Shown here: in pieces, positions 9,549 through 63,627 of the stretch
Layout: each line of letters begins with the position of its first letter
Numbering within the stretch: the stretch's first letter is position 1
Virus record (IMG/VR): IMGVR_UViG_3300021963_000034
Coordinates: 89,556 to 153,555 of that record
DNA length: 64,000 nucleotides
Reading direction: 5' to 3' (one strand)
Source: a virus
Notes under the pieces: model-generated
The model's database searches: none
What the model was told of the DNA's origin: nothing
Seen by the model: only the letters and a program-made list of their open reading frames with translations
Made by a program: the position numbers and the translations under genes

Positions 9549-9568
9549 AGAATAATTTTATAATTCAT

Positions 9569-9600
9569 AAATACACCCAGGAAACTGGGTGTATTTTTTT
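9569..9600 (+). terminator. hairpin plus T-tract overlapping a late promoter
   Basis: aaatacacccag-gaaa-ctgggtgtattt followed by a T run; ATAAATA at the 5' side. Confidence 0.65.
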
Positions 9601-9789
9601 ATGTCTGAAGATGACTTAAAAGCAGTACTTGCAAAATATCAACAAAAGGCATTTGATTTGTTTAATCGAAATATTGTATTGGAAACTCAAGTAGAAACAC
9701 TTACAGCAACTGTTAATGCTTTAAGTATTGAATTAGAAAAATTAAGAAAACCAAAAAGAAGTTCAAAAGTAGAGGCAGATTTTTCATAA
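9601..9789 (+). CDS. small coiled-coil protein (possible fibre assembly factor)
   Basis: heptad pattern LETQVETLTATVNALSIELEKL; lies between fibre genes. Confidence 0.55.
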   Translation: MSEDDLKAVLAKYQQKAFDLFNRNIVLETQVETLTATVNALSIELEKLRKPKRSSKVEADFS

Positions 9790-32732: not shown

Positions 32733-33569
32733 ATGACTGACCTTAAATTCACATCACCAAGTGGAGAAACTACCCTAAAAGTTGAAGATACTGGTAGAAT
32801 AGGAACAGTAGCACCTAAAACACAACTACACATTAAAATGGATGAACCTGTGAAATACGAAACTCCTATGACTGCGATTGAAGATATTGAGGCACAAATC
32901 AAAGTGCTTCAAAGTAAGTTGGAATTTTATAAGGAGTTGGAACGAACAAAAACTCCTTGCGAAGAAGCATATAAAAGAGTTTATGGTAATTATCCTACGA
33001 CTCATATTACTGATGGATGTTGGGACAGTCCAACTTGGATGCACTTTGTGAATGGATATAAGTCCGCACAAAAGGATTATAAGGTGGGAGAGTTTCAAGA
33101 AACTGTACAAGAACGAGGAGAACGACTTCATAAGGATGTGGAAAGAACTGTTCGTGAGAGTGTGAAATGGTGTGAAGAGCATCCAGATACAGACCCATTA
33201 GATTGGTTGAAACCACAGACACCAGAGCAAACCGAACAATCACTCAAAGAGGCATTTAGAGAGGCACAACAAACGGAAAAGTGGAAAGAACTTCAAAGAA
33301 AGATTGATGAAGAAGATAATGATAAGAACTTCAAGAACTCTCTTGACCTTATCAAAGAATGGGGTGAGAAGAATAAACCACCCACTCTAAAAGAACTCTT
33401 GTGGGAATGGTGGGAAGACATCTTTACTGTGGATGCTGATTTAGATGCTGATGCTTCTATTGATGTTCTTGTAGATATTATTGATAAAAAGTTTATTCCA
33501 CCTTCAAGTGAAAAGAATGGGTATGAATGGGAAAAGTGCTTGAAAATTATGAGGGATAAATTGAGGTAG
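32733..33569 (+). CDS. hypothetical, apparently chimeric protein
   Basis: 278-aa ORF; fibre-like N-terminal peptide followed by acidic helical segments. Confidence 0.55.
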   Translation: MTDLKFTSPSGETTLKVEDTGRIGTVAPKTQLHIKMDEPVKYETPMTAIEDIEAQIKVLQSKLEFYKELERTKTPCEEAYKRVYGNYPTTHITDGCWDSPTWMHFVNGYKSAQKDYKVGEFQETVQERGERLHKDVERTVRESVKWCEEHPDTDPLDWLKPQTPEQTEQSLKEAFREAQQTEKWKELQRKIDEEDNDKNFKNSLDLIKEWGEKNKPPTLKELLWEWWEDIFTVDADLDADASIDVLVDIIDKKFIPPSSEKNGYEWEKCLKIMRDKLR

Positions 33570-33582
33570 TATAAATACAAAT

Positions 33583-33640
33583 GTCTATAGAACCCGCAAT
33601 CTCTACAGATAAGATTAGGTGCTTTAGGGCACCTTTTCTA
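33583..33640 (+). ncRNA. putative late small RNA complementary to the HNH endonuclease leader
   Basis: TATAAATA 33570-77; CTATAGAACCCGCA complementary to TGCGGGTTTAATAG (33654-67); terminator aggtgct-ttag-ggcacct-ttt; second TATAAATA 33642-49. Confidence 0.45.
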
Positions 33641-33674
33641 TTATAAATAGAAGTGCGGGTTTAATAGAATAGAA

Positions 33675-34379
33675 ATGAACTATCTAAAGGTTTATTGTAA
33701 TCTTATCAGGAAAGCAGAGAACAGAACTCCTCCTGAAGGTTATACAGAAAATCACCATACATTTCCAAAAAGTATTTTTGGAAAGAATAATAGAATTGTC
33801 GTGCTTACTGGAAGAGAACATTACATAGCACACGCATTACTTGAAAAAGCATTTATAAAGAGATATGGATTGAATAATATAAAAACGCAAAAAATGATAA
33901 AAGCATTTTGGTGTATGAATAATCAAAAGACAAAAAATACATATTTGAATTCTCATTTATATGAAAGTTCAAGAATAAGATTTATTGAAAATATAAAAGG
34001 AGAAAATCACTACTGGTATGGAAAAAAACATTCCCAAAAAACAAGAGAAAGAATGAAAGAAGCACAAAAAGGTGAAAATCATCCAATGTATGGTAAAACT
34101 CATACTGAAGAGACAAGAGAAAAAATGAGTAAATCTCATTTAGGAAAACCATCATCAAAGGGAATGTTGGGTAAAAAACAAACTGAAGAAGCAAAACAAA
34201 AAATAAGAGAAAGTAAAGAAGTCAAATCTTTTTCAGTAATAAGTCCTACTGGTGAAATAATTCATTCTAAAAATACTAAACAATTTTGTAGAGATAATAA
34301 TTTAGATAAAGGGCACTTTTCTCAAGTTTTGAACGGAAAACGACCAATTCATAAAGGATTTCGTCTCTATACTGGATAA
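33675..34379 (+). CDS. free-standing HNH homing endonuclease with NUMOD3 repeats
   Basis: YTENHHTFPKS...NRIVVLTGREHYIAHALL; GENHYWYGKKHS, GENHPMYGKTHT repeats. Confidence 0.85.
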   Translation: MNYLKVYCNLIRKAENRTPPEGYTENHHTFPKSIFGKNNRIVVLTGREHYIAHALLEKAFIKRYGLNNIKTQKMIKAFWCMNNQKTKNTYLNSHLYESSRIRFIENIKGENHYWYGKKHSQKTRERMKEAQKGENHPMYGKTHTEETREKMSKSHLGKPSSKGMLGKKQTEEAKQKIRESKEVKSFSVISPTGEIIHSKNTKQFCRDNNLDKGHFSQVLNGKRPIHKGFRLYTG

Positions 34380-34437
34380 GGACACTTGAAGAACCGTCAC
34401 AGAGGCACTTGAAAACGGGTGCTCTTTCTGGTATGAT
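34379..34437 (+). promoter_or_regulatory. palindrome-promoter element #5
   Basis: AGGACA-cttgaagaac-CGTCAC; TTGAAA-N17-TATGAT. Confidence 0.75.
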
Positions 34438-34460
34438 ACTCTTATACACAAAGACATCTC

Positions 34461-34637
34461 ATGTCCGAAAACCTTTTAGTGTTTTGTTTTGGTTGTTTGC
34501 TTACCTCAAATGGGTTATTATTAATGTCATCAGACCATTGTAAAAAAGAGAAAATCAAACAAGAACGAAATGATGCTATTGTTTTTTGTGTAGAAAATCC
34601 AACCAAGTGTAAGACCGAATACCTGAAATTACGATAA
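34461..34637 (+). CDS. small membrane protein (paralog of 28370..28564), not in ORF track
   Basis: IVFCVENPTKCKTEY vs INFCVEKPADCKTKY. Confidence 0.6.
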   Translation: MSENLLVFCFGCLLTSNGLLLMSSDHCKKEKIKQERNDAIVFCVENPTKCKTEYLKLR

Positions 34638-35015
34638 TGCCATTCTTTCCAGATTGCTATGATGAGTGGGGTCTTTATAAGATTACTTATGATGGAGACC
34701 ACAAACTATATGAAATGCTATTTGAGGGCACAGAAGAAGAGTGCCGTCAATATGCTTATGACAACTACACAGATAAAGAACAGGGTGATATGTGTTTGAT
34801 GGACTGGGAAGCAAGGGAGTGGAGTGTATGACTGACCGAAACTTCAAGAAAGAACTGAATTACTATGTCTATAATGACCCAGAGTATAGTGAAGATATTG
34901 AAACAATTGATTATGATTGTCTGATTGGTATTATCACCGAGTTGTGTGATAGAATTGAAAAACTTGAGGACAAAGTAGATGAACTTAACCCTAACCCGAG
35001 ATGGAGTTTGGATTG

Positions 35016-35750
35016 ATGACTGAACACAATCTGCCAGACAAGGATGATGCTCCTTGGTTAAATACACAATACGATGGTTTTATGACTCACGAGGAAATGT
35101 TGGAACTTGCTGCACAACGAGAAGCAGATAATAAAGCATTAGAAGCATTAGACAAACTCTATGATGAGAATGGTGATGCTCTTCAACAACTTGCTGCGAT
35201 TGAAAGAGAGGAACTACTTGAAAAAATGAATTCACAAGCAATTCAAACTGCTATTGCTGGTATTGATAAGTATTCCGATGCTCTCAAAGAACTTCGTAAG
35301 ATTGAACATGAAGAACTGATTGAAGAACTGCAAGCAAAGAAGAAAGAAAACTTTCAACTAGTTGCTGATGCTTGTATGAAAGAATATGAGCAAAAGTATC
35401 ATCGTGATGTATTCCCAGTAGATGAATATTGGGTGTATATGGTTGCTGAATACTTTGGCACTGGTGAAGGTCAAACTGTGTGTATTATGATGACACAGGC
35501 AGTTCCTAGTCATGCGGAAGATTTTGAAACCTCTAACAATAGGTATGTTCCTTGTACAACCAAAGAATATCGTGCAGTGCGTGAGTTTCATGAACAATTT
35601 GGTACTTGGTATCTTCATGGTCTCAGATTTCTCACTAAAGAAGATTTCTTTAGTGAATATTCATACTACATTCCTCCAGCAATGATGAAACTTCTCAATA
35701 GGAGTTGCTTCAAAGACTTCTACACCCGTGTTCATTACAATTTCTCATAA
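35016..35750 (+). CDS. hypothetical protein (coiled-coil N-terminus)
   Basis: about 244-aa ORF in a coupled array. Confidence 0.6.
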   Translation: MTEHNLPDKDDAPWLNTQYDGFMTHEEMLELAAQREADNKALEALDKLYDENGDALQQLAAIEREELLEKMNSQAIQTAIAGIDKYSDALKELRKIEHEELIEELQAKKKENFQLVADACMKEYEQKYHRDVFPVDEYWVYMVAEYFGTGEGQTVCIMMTQAVPSHAEDFETSNNRYVPCTTKEYRAVREFHEQFGTWYLHGLRFLTKEDFFSEYSYYIPPAMMKLLNRSCFKDFYTRVHYNFS

Positions 35751-36310
35751 TGGATTTCACAAAACGCCAACTGGTTCTATTGACAACGGCACTTACTCTG
35801 TTCTATGATGAGATTGCAAAGACCGCAAAACCAGAGTTCAAAGCAGAAGTAATGGAACTTGCACAGATGGTTCAGGATGCTTATGAGAACGCAGAATGAG
35901 TAGATTTCAAGAAAATCCAGACGAAATTGTACTTCAAGACATTCAAATGTTTCATCTTGAAAGTATGAATGAACGCACCTTATGGGTTGGTGTGTATACT
36001 GAAGACGATAAAATCTATCACTTGAATATTTCTGCGGATGGTGATAAACTGAGGTACTATTGGAGTGATGAGACGCCATGAGGTTTGAAAATCCAACAAA
36101 ATGGGAAATCTTCCTTGATGGTTTCCATAACTTCTGGAACTGCCTGGATTGTTATAATGATGGTGATACTTGGGGATACGATGAGTTCTGGGAAGGATTA
36201 AATCTTGGGTTTTATATGATGGAAATTTATGACTATGATGACCCATTTAATCCATCTGTTTTGAGTAAGCAAAGGAAAAGGTTGTATGGAATTTATGAAT
36301 AAATAGTCGT

Positions 36311-36365
36311 ACCTAATTTGGTGGTTCTTTTTAGGTTGGGATAAAGCACCTTCGGGTGCTTTTCC
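36311..36365 (+). ncRNA. putative late small RNA complementary to the GIY-YIG-like endonuclease leader
   Basis: AATAAATA 36298-305; CTAATTTGGTGGTT (36313-26) is the exact reverse complement of AACCACCAAATTAG (36381-94); terminator aaagcacc-ttcg-ggtgcttt; second TATAAATA 36368-75. Confidence 0.5.
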
Positions 36366-36403
36366 TGTATAAATACTAATAACCACCAAATTAGAGTAGA
36401 TCT

Positions 36404-37123
36404 ATGAAAGACCCTAACAGGTTTTATACTTACGCATACCTGCGAGAAGATAGAACACCTTACTATGTTGGTAAAGGTGAAGGAAGAAGATTGTATAAAA
36501 AAGGAAAGTGTGAAGTTAAACCTCCAAAAGATAAATCAAGAGTAATCTTTTTAAAAGAAAATCTAACAGAAGAAGAAGCATTTAAGCACGAAATCTATAT
36601 GATTGATGTGCTTGGTAGAAAAGATGTTGGAACTGGAATATTAAGAAATAGAACTAATGGTGGTGATGGATTAAGTGGATATGTTCCCACACCAGAAACT
36701 ATTCTAAAATTAAAAAATAGAGAGTGTAGTGAAAAAACAAGAGAAAAAATAAGAAAATCAAACAAAAAAGTTTGGGAAAATGAAGAATTAAGAAAAAGAA
36801 TGAGTGATATGAAGAAAGGAATACCTATTCCAGAAGAAAGAAAGAAAAAGATTTCTCTGGGGCATATGGGTAAAGTTGTGAGTGAAGAAACAAAACAAAA
36901 ATTGAGAGAGTATAATGTAAAATATTTGTATGAAATAAAAGACACACAAGGGAACATTTACACAACAGATAATCTCAATTATTTCTGTAAAATGAATGGA
37001 CTTGATACTGCTGCGATGCAGAGAGTTTGTTATGGAAAACAAAAATCACACACTCCAAAAAGAAAAGATAGAGTTCCTAATGTAGTGGGGTGGACGGTTC
37101 GCATACTGGAACATATCACTTGA
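36404..37123 (+). CDS. free-standing GIY-YIG-like homing endonuclease with NUMOD3 repeats
   Basis: FYTYAYLREDRTPYYVGKG..RR...EAFKHE...LRNRTNGGDG; SEKTREKI, SEETKQKL repeats. Confidence 0.8.
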   Translation: MKDPNRFYTYAYLREDRTPYYVGKGEGRRLYKKGKCEVKPPKDKSRVIFLKENLTEEEAFKHEIYMIDVLGRKDVGTGILRNRTNGGDGLSGYVPTPETILKLKNRECSEKTREKIRKSNKKVWENEELRKRMSDMKKGIPIPEERKKKISLGHMGKVVSEETKQKLREYNVKYLYEIKDTQGNIYTTDNLNYFCKMNGLDTAAMQRVCYGKQKSHTPKRKDRVPNVVGWTVRILEHIT

Positions 37124-37148
37124 TTATGTGTTCTGCCTGTGTTATGAT
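37091..37148 (+). promoter_or_regulatory. degenerate palindrome-promoter element #6
   Basis: TGGACG-N10-TGGAAC; TTGATT-N17-TATGAT at the conserved 30-bp offset. Confidence 0.55.
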
Positions 37149-55844: not shown

Positions 55845-56273
55845 ATGCAACTTAATCTCACTGCAATTAAAAAGGATTCTATCTGGGTTTTTGATCATGA
55901 ACATCAAAACACTGTAGAGGAACCATTATGCAATGGTACTGAACTTGTTTTGAATGAATACTTTGAGATTGATATGAGTCGATCTGCTAAAGAAGGAGAT
56001 CAACTCCGAATTAGTGTAAATACGGATCCTTTTGAACAATATGATACTGAACTTCAACTTCAAAAAATTGATGATGTGGGATCTGTTTATTTGGATACAG
56101 AACTCTATGAAGAAGTTTGGTTATGTCCTTGGTTACAATCTTATTTTGGAAATGTACCTGAAAAATTATATGTAAAGATTGATGCTGTTAATCCAGGTTT
56201 AGAACAATATAAGAAAACAATGCGAACAGGTGTAAATCCATTTTCTAAATACTTAAAAAAAGTATTTCAATGA
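55845..56273 (+). CDS. DUF6717-like protein
   Basis: WVFD...EPLCNG...WLCPWLQSYFGNVPEKLYV. Confidence 0.65.
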   Translation: MQLNLTAIKKDSIWVFDHEHQNTVEEPLCNGTELVLNEYFEIDMSRSAKEGDQLRISVNTDPFEQYDTELQLQKIDDVGSVYLDTELYEEVWLCPWLQSYFGNVPEKLYVKIDAVNPGLEQYKKTMRTGVNPFSKYLKKVFQ

Positions 56274-56998
56274 TTACCTTTAGAGAGTTCTTAGAATTAG
56301 CAGAAAGTTCTACTGGAGAACGTGGAAAGCGTAGATTAGCACCTAAAGGTCCAAAGGGAAGTAGATATGAAAGAACAGCACAAAGACATGATACTGTTGA
56401 TCGTGTTGCACTAAAAAAAGCAGGTTTTAAGCGTTCTTCTAATCAAGACTATTATCCACAAGATAATGTAACCTCTAGTTCTCCACATCATGACACTGTG
56501 ATTTCCACATATAAAAATCAAAGTGATTTTGCAAAGCATAATGTAAAAGGAAAACTCAAAAATGCAGGAAGAACTGCAACTGGAGCACCAAAGAAAAAAG
56601 TTGTTCCAACAGCAGAAAGAGTTAGACATCTTAAAGCATTAAGAAAACAGTTAGGTGGTGATAGAACATCAAGACAAGTTCATGATGTTTCGATTCATGC
56701 AAAAGATGATCAAGAACATCAAAAGAATGACCCAAAACAGTTAATTTCAAGAGGAAAAAGTTTTAAGAAAGAAGTTAAAGCAGTTCCATCTGCAACTAAA
56801 CAAGTTGGTGGAAAAGCAGGAGACAAAGTAGTAGGTAGACCTGCTGAAGTTCAATCAATGCCTGATAGTATGTCAGCGAGTCAAAAAGTTGCATTAAGAA
56901 AGAAAGGCGCAACAAAACGTGGAAAGATTTACAATAAAGAATTGGGTGGTTCTAAGACAAATCCTAAAACAGGATTAAACATTGGAAATCTTAAGTGA
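56270..56998 (+). CDS. putative internal head protein, very basic
   Basis: MITFREFLELAE; TAAATA at 56246. Confidence 0.6.
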   Translation: MITFREFLELAESSTGERGKRRLAPKGPKGSRYERTAQRHDTVDRVALKKAGFKRSSNQDYYPQDNVTSSSPHHDTVISTYKNQSDFAKHNVKGKLKNAGRTATGAPKKKVVPTAERVRHLKALRKQLGGDRTSRQVHDVSIHAKDDQEHQKNDPKQLISRGKSFKKEVKAVPSATKQVGGKAGDKVVGRPAEVQSMPDSMSASQKVALRKKGATKRGKIYNKELGGSKTNPKTGLNIGNLK

Positions 56999-62501: not shown

Positions 62502-62524
62502 ATTGATGTATTGATCATTCTTTG

Positions 62525-62992
62525 ATGATGACAAGAAGAAATGTTTGGTTAAAGTATGATGAATGGGAATCAATTTGTCAAGAACTTTCTCATGTAAAGT
62601 ATCATCCATTTGAACTTTCTAAAATGCAATTAAAAGAATGGAAGGATAGAATGAAGAAGTATCCCGAATCTTTTGATTCTTATTGTTTTGAGAGAGTGAG
62701 TATCTATTCTGTAGTTGAAGAATTGAAAAGTTCTAAACTGCAAAATGTTTTGTATAAAGAATACTATCGTTCTCAAGATATAATGGATGCAATGTCTTTT
62801 AATTGTACTTTTGCTGGATTTATTCTTAATCATGCAGAGAACGTGAATGAGAATACTACAACTGAAGAATGGGAGTCAAATAGAATTAAATTGGATAAAT
62901 GTATGAATGATAGTGATAAAAAAAGATGGTTTTGTGATGACATTGTAAAACTCTATGAAGAGCAGTGTGCCAATCATCAAACCGTCCACTAA
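62525..62992 (+). CDS. hypothetical protein (single-gene cassette)
   Basis: lies between elements #20 and #21; AT-rich. Confidence 0.6.
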   Translation: MMTRRNVWLKYDEWESICQELSHVKYHPFELSKMQLKEWKDRMKKYPESFDSYCFERVSIYSVVEELKSSKLQNVLYKEYYRSQDIMDAMSFNCTFAGFILNHAENVNENTTTEEWESNRIKLDKCMNDSDKKRWFCDDIVKLYEEQCANHQTVH

Positions 62993-63023
62993 ATCAACCA
63001 CTGGTGTCTAGAACCTGTATTCT
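62967..63023 (+). promoter_or_regulatory. palindrome-promoter element #21
   Basis: GTGCCA-atcatcaaac-CGTCCA; TATTCT. Confidence 0.7.
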
Positions 63024-63047
63024 TAAGAAGTTCAAGGGATTCTTCAA

Positions 63048-63627
63048 ATGACTTTCCAAGACGCACTGATCGCAACAGGTTATTTCTTTCAACCTGAATG
63101 TGGTGCATTTTGCAAGGAAGATTGCAACTGGAATCTTCATTCTTATGTTGAACAAACTGAAGGTACTTGGTCGTATGAAAAGTATGATCAAGATGGTCAA
63201 TTTGTGACTTCCAAAGTATTCTCTCTGAACTGATTATGAACTACTACAAAGTCACCCAAATTGAGTTTGATTTTGACTATGAAGATCTCACTGAAGAAGA
63301 ACAAAATGAGATCATTTCAGAAGCAACAAATTGTCTTTGGACTTCACCAACTGAAGAAGATCTAACAAATACAATTAGTGACAACATGGGTTGGTGCATT
63401 AAGTCTCTTCAATATGACATCATCCATGCTTAATTTCTGTTTGTTTGCATCTATTGTTCTTCGTTTTCACTTTCATCATGCTTGAACTTCTCATTGCTTC
63501 TACGATCATTGGTTCTACTGAAATTGCGCCAAATGTATTACAAATTGAGTATCTTACACCAAACAATTCAGTTGTAACTATTCTTGATAATGTTGAAATT
63601 AAAGGAGGACAAATAGACAATGATTGA
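63048..63627 (+). other. three small ORFs (63048, 63236, 63478)
   Basis: 63236 is a paralog of 60952. Confidence 0.6.

Follow-up and report, generated by a model that had tools for sequence, protein, structure and literature searches.

The DNA analysed here (the window) is a stretch of 64,000 nucleotides, positions 89,556 to 153,555 of the IMG/VR virus record IMGVR_UViG_3300021963_000034. It is the final 64 kb of a 153.5-kb contig from a T4-like cyanomyovirus, for which CheckV estimates a completeness of 72%. The phage is a distant relative of S-PM2, and the closest isolate for the elements described below is the freshwater Synechococcus phage S-SRM01. Two homing endonuclease genes (HEGs) of the window are each preceded by a control region of about 108 bases (33570-33677 and 36298-36406), which we call a module and which contains a putative gene for a small antisense RNA. 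In both modules, the elements follow each other in the order late-promoter motif (P1), sequence arm (X), local hairpin (H1), intrinsic terminator, second late-promoter motif (P2), complementary arm (X'), and ATG. P1 abuts or overlaps the stop codon of the upstream gene. The two modules and their genes consist of the following features.

33570..33577, + strand: P1 of module 1, late-promoter motif TATAAATA, directly 3' of the TAG stop codon (33567-33569) of the upstream early-type gene
33583..33599, + strand: X of module 1, the 5' arm GTCTATAGAACCCGCAA, which begins at the predicted start of the P1 transcript; predicted duplex with X' of -20.4 kcal/mol
33583..33610, + strand: H1 of module 1, local hairpin of the predicted short RNA whose loop contains the X core (from folding)
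33617..33641, + strand: intrinsic terminator of module 1, stem AGGTGC...GCACCT followed by TTTTCTATT
33642..33649, + strand: P2 of module 1, late promoter TATAAATA between the arms, at a P1-P2 distance of 72 nt
33653..33669, + strand: X' of module 1, the 3' arm, with which the predicted late mRNA leader begins; 5 nt lie between X' and the ATG at 33675
33675..34379, + strand: Mob-type HNH homing endonuclease of 234 aa with NUMOD3 repeats and an I-HmuI-like C-terminal domain (Pfam; PHROG 655; tblastn to MobD/MobE-like genes)
36298..36305, + strand: P1 of module 2, AATAAATA, which overlaps the TAA stop codon of an upstream 74-aa open reading frame (ORF) and fits the ATAAATA core
36312..36326, + strand: X of module 2, CCTAATTTGGTGGTT, 14/14 complementary to X'
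36311..36336, + strand: H1 hairpin of module 2 (from folding)
36338..36365, + strand: terminator of module 2, AAAGCACC-TTCG-GGTGCTTT with a T tail that is short (from the fold)
36368..36375, + strand: P2 of module 2, TATAAATA, 70 nt after P1
36381..36394, + strand: X' of module 2, AACCACCAAATTAG, separated from the ATG at 36404 by 9 nt
36404..37123, + strand: GIY-YIG-like homing endonuclease of 239 aa with a NUMOD3-type C-terminal region (PHROG 15526 and 314)

Every element named in the original prediction was found in its place. Its assignment of two TATAAATA promoters to each module holds for both promoters of module 1 and for P2 of module 2, but P1 of module 2 reads AATAAATA. In the window, P1 is separated from X by about 6 nt, P2 from X' by about 4 nt, and X' from the ATG by 5-9 nt. 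With G-U pairs counted, the X:X' complementarity comprises 14-17 bp and likewise ends 5-9 nt before the ATG. The GGTGC/GCACC hairpin of module 1 occupies 33617-33634 and the GCACC-TTCG-GGTGC hairpin of module 2 occupies 36346-36359, each followed by TTTT. H1 and the X:X' helix are mutually exclusive. Tandem pairs of ATAAATA occur in the 153.5-kb contig in these two modules only.

The sequence ATAAATA is credible as the late-promoter core of this phage. It is found 13 times on the + strand of the window and never on the - strand, and the whole contig contains 37 forward and 4 reverse copies. CTAAATA shows 14 forward and 3 reverse copies in the contig, whereas GTAAATA (18/13) and TTAAATA (18/15) are without such a strand bias. 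As the A and C variants are both strongly strand-biased, both forms of P1 appear promoter-like. Ordinary copies of ATAAATA are located 20-30 nt 5' of the ATG of late-type genes. The T of TATAAATA is mostly missing from the late promoters elsewhere in this phage; hence, a ranking of P1 and P2 by strength from the motif was set aside. At window positions 9567-9602, ATAAATA is directly followed by CACCCAG-GAAA-CTGGGTG, which forms a perfect hairpin, and by a run of T up to an ATG. This element could give a further short late transcript or could be an attenuator before a late gene.

A search of IMG/VR for homologues of both nucleases gave 160 loci, 147 of which are without the signature of a second kind of module (type 2, described below), and 140 of these 147 were parsed cleanly. 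Both P1 and P2 are present in 140/140 parsed loci, with P1 located 62-85 nt 5' of P2. P1 is [A/C]TAAATA in all 140 (94 with A, 46 with C), and neither G nor T ever occurs at the variable position. P2 is ATAAATA in 138/140 modules and lies about 4 nt before X'. Three of the 7 unparsed loci also have both promoters and had been lost through a wrongly assigned start codon. When 72 non-redundant modules were aligned, the only invariant columns were the TAAATA cores of P1 and P2 and a single T in the terminator tail. An independent sample was drawn from metagenome contigs picked solely by the terminator-P2 motif, without reference to HEG homology. It contains P1 in 70/70 true modules (57 with A, 13 with C), with a cognate X:X' duplex of -23.4 +/- 2.4 kcal/mol. 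Behind each of the 70 lies a HEG-like ORF, a few of which are truncated; these ORFs fall into five or six N-terminal families. Including both samples, the module fronts HEGs of at least five N-terminal families at about 210 other loci.

Searched with a covariance model, the whole contig yields two matches, which are the two modules of the window, both before HEG-like genes. S-SRM01, which infects Synechococcus sp. KCZYC6, carries six strong copies, at about 17.95, 48.43, 51.25, 55.96, 62.41, and 192.42 kb, each directly 5' of an HNH, NUMOD3, or GIY-like gene, and was the sole match when the modules were compared by BLAST with isolate phages. The covariance-model search of S-PM2 found no module; its single weak match consists of an ordinary terminator and a late promoter in front of a structural gene. 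An Rfam search with the modules returned only noise, and no Rfam family covers the module. Some copies depart from the common form. In the metagenome contigs L211, L239, and L276, intact modules stand before nuclease ORFs cut to 27-33 codons; the control module can persist after its nuclease gene decays. Loci L016, L033, L087, L106, L119, L137, and L141 have an insertion of 12-13 nt between the terminator and P2, just before P2, that resembles an additional, degenerate copy of the promoter (TATTATAAACTCTT or TATTATAAAGTATT).

In the predicted read-through RNA, X folds on X' around the terminator hairpin with -35.5 and -38.8 kcal/mol for the two modules of the window (z = -5.4 and -5.3; 0/200 shuffles as good). 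The leaders predicted to start at P2 are unstructured (module 1: -1.9 kcal/mol, z = 0.29). RNAalifold gave no structure on a plain MAFFT alignment, in which indels shift the register between subgroups; covariance models were therefore built and the modules realigned. In the model-fitted alignment of 79 modules, all 17/17 X:X' pairs show compensatory changes, a strongly positive outcome of the check for X/X' covariation in homologues that had been proposed along with the original prediction. Paired cells amount to 95.7%, compared with 39-52% for slid partners, and 0/500 shuffles match this value. An alignment-free comparison gave -23.3 +/- 2.2 kcal/mol for cognate X:X' duplexes and -10.8 +/- 3.7 kcal/mol for non-cognate ones, and the cognate X' was the top partner for 53 of 73 X arms. 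The claimed layout of two promoters, antisense arm, and terminator is thus real and recurs with compensatory changes in hundreds of loci.

The helix cells include 72 G-U and 21 A-C combinations; this excess of G-U argues for pairing in the + strand RNA and not in DNA. The duplex spans 13-22 bp. Its arms begin about 4 nt downstream of their respective promoters, and in most loci 0-6 nt separate it from the ATG. As a clear Shine-Dalgarno sequence is absent, the masked part is the leader rather than a defined ribosome-binding site (RBS). X varies freely provided that X' follows. The same X is found before different nuclease families (C-terminal identity 0.24, equal to the background), and the X allele of module 2 of the window precedes an HNH gene in L012. 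For the predicted RNAs of the window (59 and 56 nt), the net cofold energies with H1 opened are -15.6 and -14.6 kcal/mol for the cognate combinations and -2.3 and -4.9 kcal/mol for the crossed ones, in agreement with the earlier claim that each X is specific for its own leader. The six S-SRM01 modules are mutually orthogonal, but this has no power to test action in trans, since with such a large number of X alleles random draws would differ as well.

Several features mark the 5' half of the module as a candidate transcription unit. The helix of H1 shows compensatory changes in 7/7 pairs, with 79.7% of the cells paired compared with 43-60% in slid controls. In the terminator helix, 8/9 pairs covary, and its T tract contains one invariant T. 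The TAAATA of P1 is equally invariant to that of P2, and the offset from P1 to X is about 4 nt across the modules, matching the offset from P2 to X'. At the level of sequence, the masking arm with its own predicted promoter, covarying hairpin, and terminator bears all the marks of a gene for an RNA of 56-59 nt. The ends of the metagenome contigs were also checked against the predicted transcript starts; they fall at arbitrary places.

Related HEGs are preceded by the type-2 module, which lies about 90 nt 5' of each HEG start in L029, L039, L049, L054, L056, L122, L134, L149, L154, L161, and L163. It consists of a conserved hairpin, GGGCAGCAAC-[X]-GTTGCGTAAGTCCCAC, with a variable X in the loop, followed by ATAAATA and an X' that abuts the ATG; some copies are without a T tail.

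Alleles without a HEG (L178-L180, L183, L184, L186-L199) served for the comparison of empty and occupied sites; S-PM2 was too divergent as a reference, and these closer IMG/VR alleles were used instead. In the empty alleles, the homologue of the upstream gene ends with ...CTACGATGA and has an ATGA overlap with the next gene, and P1 is absent. Occupied alleles end with TTGAGGTAG, immediately followed by ATAAATA. This junction, TTGAGGTAG/ATAAATA, precedes the HNH gene (window, L004, L005), one GIY-like family (L119), and another (L181, L182, L185). Because the empty sites lack P1, P1 comes in with the cassette, and because an identical left junction precedes three nuclease families, the module recombines among nuclease genes. 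A displaced late promoter of the downstream gene was ruled out as the origin of P1, as the empty sites have no P1 and the downstream promoters are early-type. The site itself is the 3' end of homologues of the gene at window positions 32733-33569, and the last codons differ between occupied and empty alleles. The small genes around the modules have sigma-70-like promoters. From the translational coupling of the upstream gene to the next gene in the HEG-less alleles, we infer that the HEGs sit in an early operon.

We propose that the module is the 5' part of a portable HEG cassette inserted in an early operon. Judged from the sequence and from the T4 and Aeh1 precedents, early transcripts from upstream would mostly end at the internal terminator, which would insulate the nuclease gene from early transcription. 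In RNA that reads through, X would fold on X' and bury the beginning of the leader to within 0-9 nt of the ATG, leaving the nuclease untranslated. Late in infection, P2 should initiate at X' and produce an mRNA without X, whose open leader would allow translation, again as in the precedents. P1 is predicted from the sequence to start at X and the terminator to end the transcript; the resulting RNA of 56-59 nt would consist of H1, with the X core in its loop, and the terminator hairpin. It would be made simultaneously with the P2 mRNA and would be perfectly matched to the 5' end of that mRNA. Most likely, the P1 RNA pairs in trans with the P2 mRNA and lowers late translation of the nuclease, acting as a copy-specific throttle. 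At the 3' end of the cassette, a sigma-70-like promoter would restart early transcription downstream. Whether the module operates in a dual mode, as a mask in cis and through a cognate antisense RNA in trans, is in our judgement evenly balanced. Tentatively, and with a probability slightly short of even, we suggest that HEG cassettes of freshwater-type T4-like cyanophages contain same-strand antisense small RNA genes, each with its own 'address' X, which repress only their own nuclease mRNA, in trans and late.

The module could also act as a mask in cis only, on read-through RNA, as described for T4 I-TevI and Aeh1 mobE. The P1 product would then be non-regulatory, or P1 polymerases, stopping 5-10 nt before P2, would interfere with P2. 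The strong read-through fold is consistent with this explanation, as are the T4 and Aeh1 precedents in cis, the same reading by Dassa et al. of their hairpins, the type-2 modules, which function without P1, and the terminator tail, which ends a few nucleotides before P2 in nearly all loci. It leaves unexplained why the cassette brings P1 along, why P1 does not vary across more than 200 loci, why the P1-X and P2-X' offsets are equal at about 4 nt, and why H1, a competitor of the mask, covaries. Moreover, two RNAs that are expressed together and pair with a net -15 kcal/mol would be hard to keep apart. We consider a purely cis-acting mask, the main rival explanation, possible but doubtful. Several points do weigh against repression in trans. 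The experimentally studied relatives (I-TevI, I-TevII, I-TevIII, segB, and Aeh1 mobE) all act in cis (PMC2988022). Type-2 modules have no P1, that is, no fixed upstream promoter, so a dedicated promoter is unnecessary for control. A repressor that shares the promoter class and timing of its target has no obvious logic beyond dampening. H1, whose two innermost pairs are weak, keeps the first 5-7 nt of X inaccessible. A simple terminator scan missed the module 2 terminator owing to its short T tail. Finally, a literature search found no transcriptome for any module-carrying phage, and the genome paper of S-SRM01, the sole isolate with the module, contains no transcript analysis and mentions no promoters or terminators.

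Two further explanations appear improbable, and to the same degree. X and X' might be a DNA-level element, either inverted protein sites, such as operators for autorepression by the nuclease, or inverted repeats that help the cassette to recombine or move. The late promoter of I-TevI is repressed by I-TevI itself via an operator similar to its homing site (PMC2988022), and X and X' are each located just 3' of a promoter. The module is common to several HEG families, three of which reuse the left junction, so recombination occurs. DNA sites would give about equal mismatch types, however, which disagrees with the 72 to 21 ratio of G-U to A-C; the X allele is unlinked to the C-terminal DNA-binding domain (identity 0.24, the background value), and covariation of H1 and terminator is typical of RNA. 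The P1 RNA might instead have another role, in which it stabilizes or processes the HEG mRNA (RNase III cleavage, 5'-end protection) or targets another phage or host RNA. According to PMC3113571, antisense duplexes in Prochlorococcus shield mRNA from RNase E during phage infection, and the duplex considered here would take in the extreme 5' end of the mRNA. The same duplex also covers the initiation region up to 0-9 nt before the ATG, for which repression is predicted, and an X that is free to vary with X' makes a conserved second target unlikely.

The genes behind the modules of the window differ in their catalytic domains. In the product of 36404-37123, the GIY-YIG signature residues of the N-terminus, Y8, Y10, Y20, G23, R29, E63, and N82, are invariant in 25 homologues, and the predicted model has three N-terminal strands followed by a helix. 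Its similarity to GIY-YIG domains is weak (profile E = 0.04, Foldseek E = 0.3-1.7, Pfam below threshold). The NUMOD3-type DNA-binding region at the C-terminus is common to both nucleases, with 32% identity over 117 aa. Contrary to the original prediction, which called the two endonucleases unrelated, they are therefore not wholly unrelated, and only their catalytic domains differ. Downstream of the two genes lie the following elements.

34404..34437, + strand: hairpin plus sigma-70-like early promoter (TTGAAA, 17 nt, TATGAT; promoter at 34409-34437), 3' of the first HEG
37120..37148, + strand: sigma-70-like early promoter (TTGATT, 17 nt, TATGAT), with an overlap between its -35 element and the stop codon of the second HEG

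A sigma-70-like promoter at or after the HEG stop codon is present in 65 of 129 distinct loci. The one at 34404..34437 probably restarts early transcription of the downstream genes. In the window region 34380-34460 and in the downstream regions of L194, L195, L004, and L005, an element GGACACTT...GGCAC-hairpin...TATAATACTCTTATACACAAAGACA recurs, in which a hairpin is joined to a sigma-70-like promoter between small early genes. We take it to resemble the promoter-early stem-loop cassettes of T4-type phages. HEGs of T4 also bear promoters that serve downstream genes (PMC2988022).

The module pinpoints HEG insertions in cyanophage genomes and could therefore aid annotation, for example of S-SRM01 gp114 and gp091. 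In S-SRM01 (NC_070963), gp114 (62515-63273) is labelled 'translation initiation factor 2', and its sequence, located behind a module, is that of a NUMOD3 and GIY-like nuclease. The product of gp091 (56059-56742), labelled 'hypothetical' and likewise encoded behind a module, has the N-terminus MTSQSPRIY... found in one module-linked family of HEG-like ORFs. The annotated start of gp297 is at 192466; the true start is probably at about 192520, just 3' of a module. Judged from these sequences, the annotations of all three genes are probably wrong.

Homing endonucleases need late and low expression to spare the carrier phage. To our knowledge, the regulation of phage homing endonucleases known so far acts in cis only, by hairpins and autorepression, and our literature searches found no small-RNA regulator of any homing endonuclease. 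If the P1 RNA is real and acts in trans, these selfish nucleases would bring their own cognate antisense repressors, which would be the first small-RNA regulators of homing endonucleases. They would also represent a portable design that recombines freely between nuclease families and provides dozens of natural orthogonal RNA-leader pairs. Even conservatively, the modules are, as far as we know, among the best-covarying phage regulatory RNA modules without an Rfam family.

The closest known systems are the HEGs of T-even phages and Aeh1. In I-TevI, I-TevII, I-TevIII, segB, and Aeh1 mobE, the initiation region is masked on long transcripts, and transcription from a late promoter within the hairpin produces an mRNA free of the mask (PMC2988022, which cites the work of Gibb and Edgell on Aeh1 and T-even HEG hairpins, PMC1913452 and PMC2655525). 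These HEGs share with ours a nuclease gene in an early or middle unit, pairing of an upstream arm with the initiation region, and a late promoter of the TATAAATA type placed between the two arms. At the sequence level, the features of a T4-type mask are thus found here: a unit read from upstream, an inverted repeat over the initiation region, and a late promoter between its arms. In contrast to the T-even and Aeh1 HEGs, the loop of our modules also contains an intrinsic terminator, and the upstream arm is equipped with an invariant late-promoter motif of its own and with a local hairpin that covaries. Furthermore, the arms form a free 'address' that differs between copies, and one module serves at least five nuclease families.

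Dassa et al. 2009 (PMC2677866) described free-standing HEGs that lie in 'fractured gene' loci from ocean and lake metagenomes. They found a hairpin in 15 of 16 HEG 5' untranslated regions, 10 of which enclose TATAAATA, and two conserved motifs that are complementary on the stem, which they read as RBS masks in cis. Cyanophage-like loci and hairpins that enclose the late-promoter motif before HEGs are common to their study and ours. Compared by text only, theirs reports no upstream promoter, terminator, covariation statistics, or separate RNA. The original prediction had regarded the arrangement as absent from the literature; the hairpins enclosing TATAAATA had in fact been reported there, whereas the upstream promoter and terminator are not in that text. 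New in comparison with the T4 review and with Dassa et al. is the masking arm packaged, by its sequence features, as its own transcription unit.

Short phage RNAs from late promoters are known from lambda, where PR'-tR' yields 6S RNA, and from StxS (PMC7547250). In these systems, as predicted here, a late promoter is directly followed by a terminator, which results in a short RNA able to regulate in trans. 6S RNA and StxS differ in being by-products of antitermination control with host targets, and they are not antisense to an adjacent gene. The likeness to a type I antitoxin drawn in the original prediction extends to a small RNA expected to be a translational repressor of a potentially harmful protein from the adjacent gene. 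It goes no further, and the modules are not a type I toxin-antitoxin system, in which the toxin is typically a small, hydrophobic peptide and its mRNA outlives the antitoxin RNA. The targets here are site-specific nucleases of 234 and 239 aa and not small toxic membrane peptides, and there is no sign of addiction. Both RNAs are predicted late phage transcripts here, with no sign of a difference in RNA stability.

In IS10/Tn10, reportedly described by Simons and Kleckner in 1983 and by Davis, Simons and Kleckner in 1985, RNA-OUT is said to be antisense to the 5' end of RNA-IN, with an additional fold-back inhibition of outside transcripts. RNA-OUT is reportedly a short RNA folded into a stem-loop, and its loop base-pairs with the transposase mRNA at the RBS and the very 5' end. 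RNA-OUT comes from the opposite strand of the same DNA, whereas X lies upstream of its target as a second, inverted copy encoded on that target's own strand, and there is no homology between the two systems. IS10 is the nearest mechanistic analogue of the modules, since one complementary segment there protects the mobile element in two ways, as an antisense RNA in trans and as a mask in cis on read-through transcripts.

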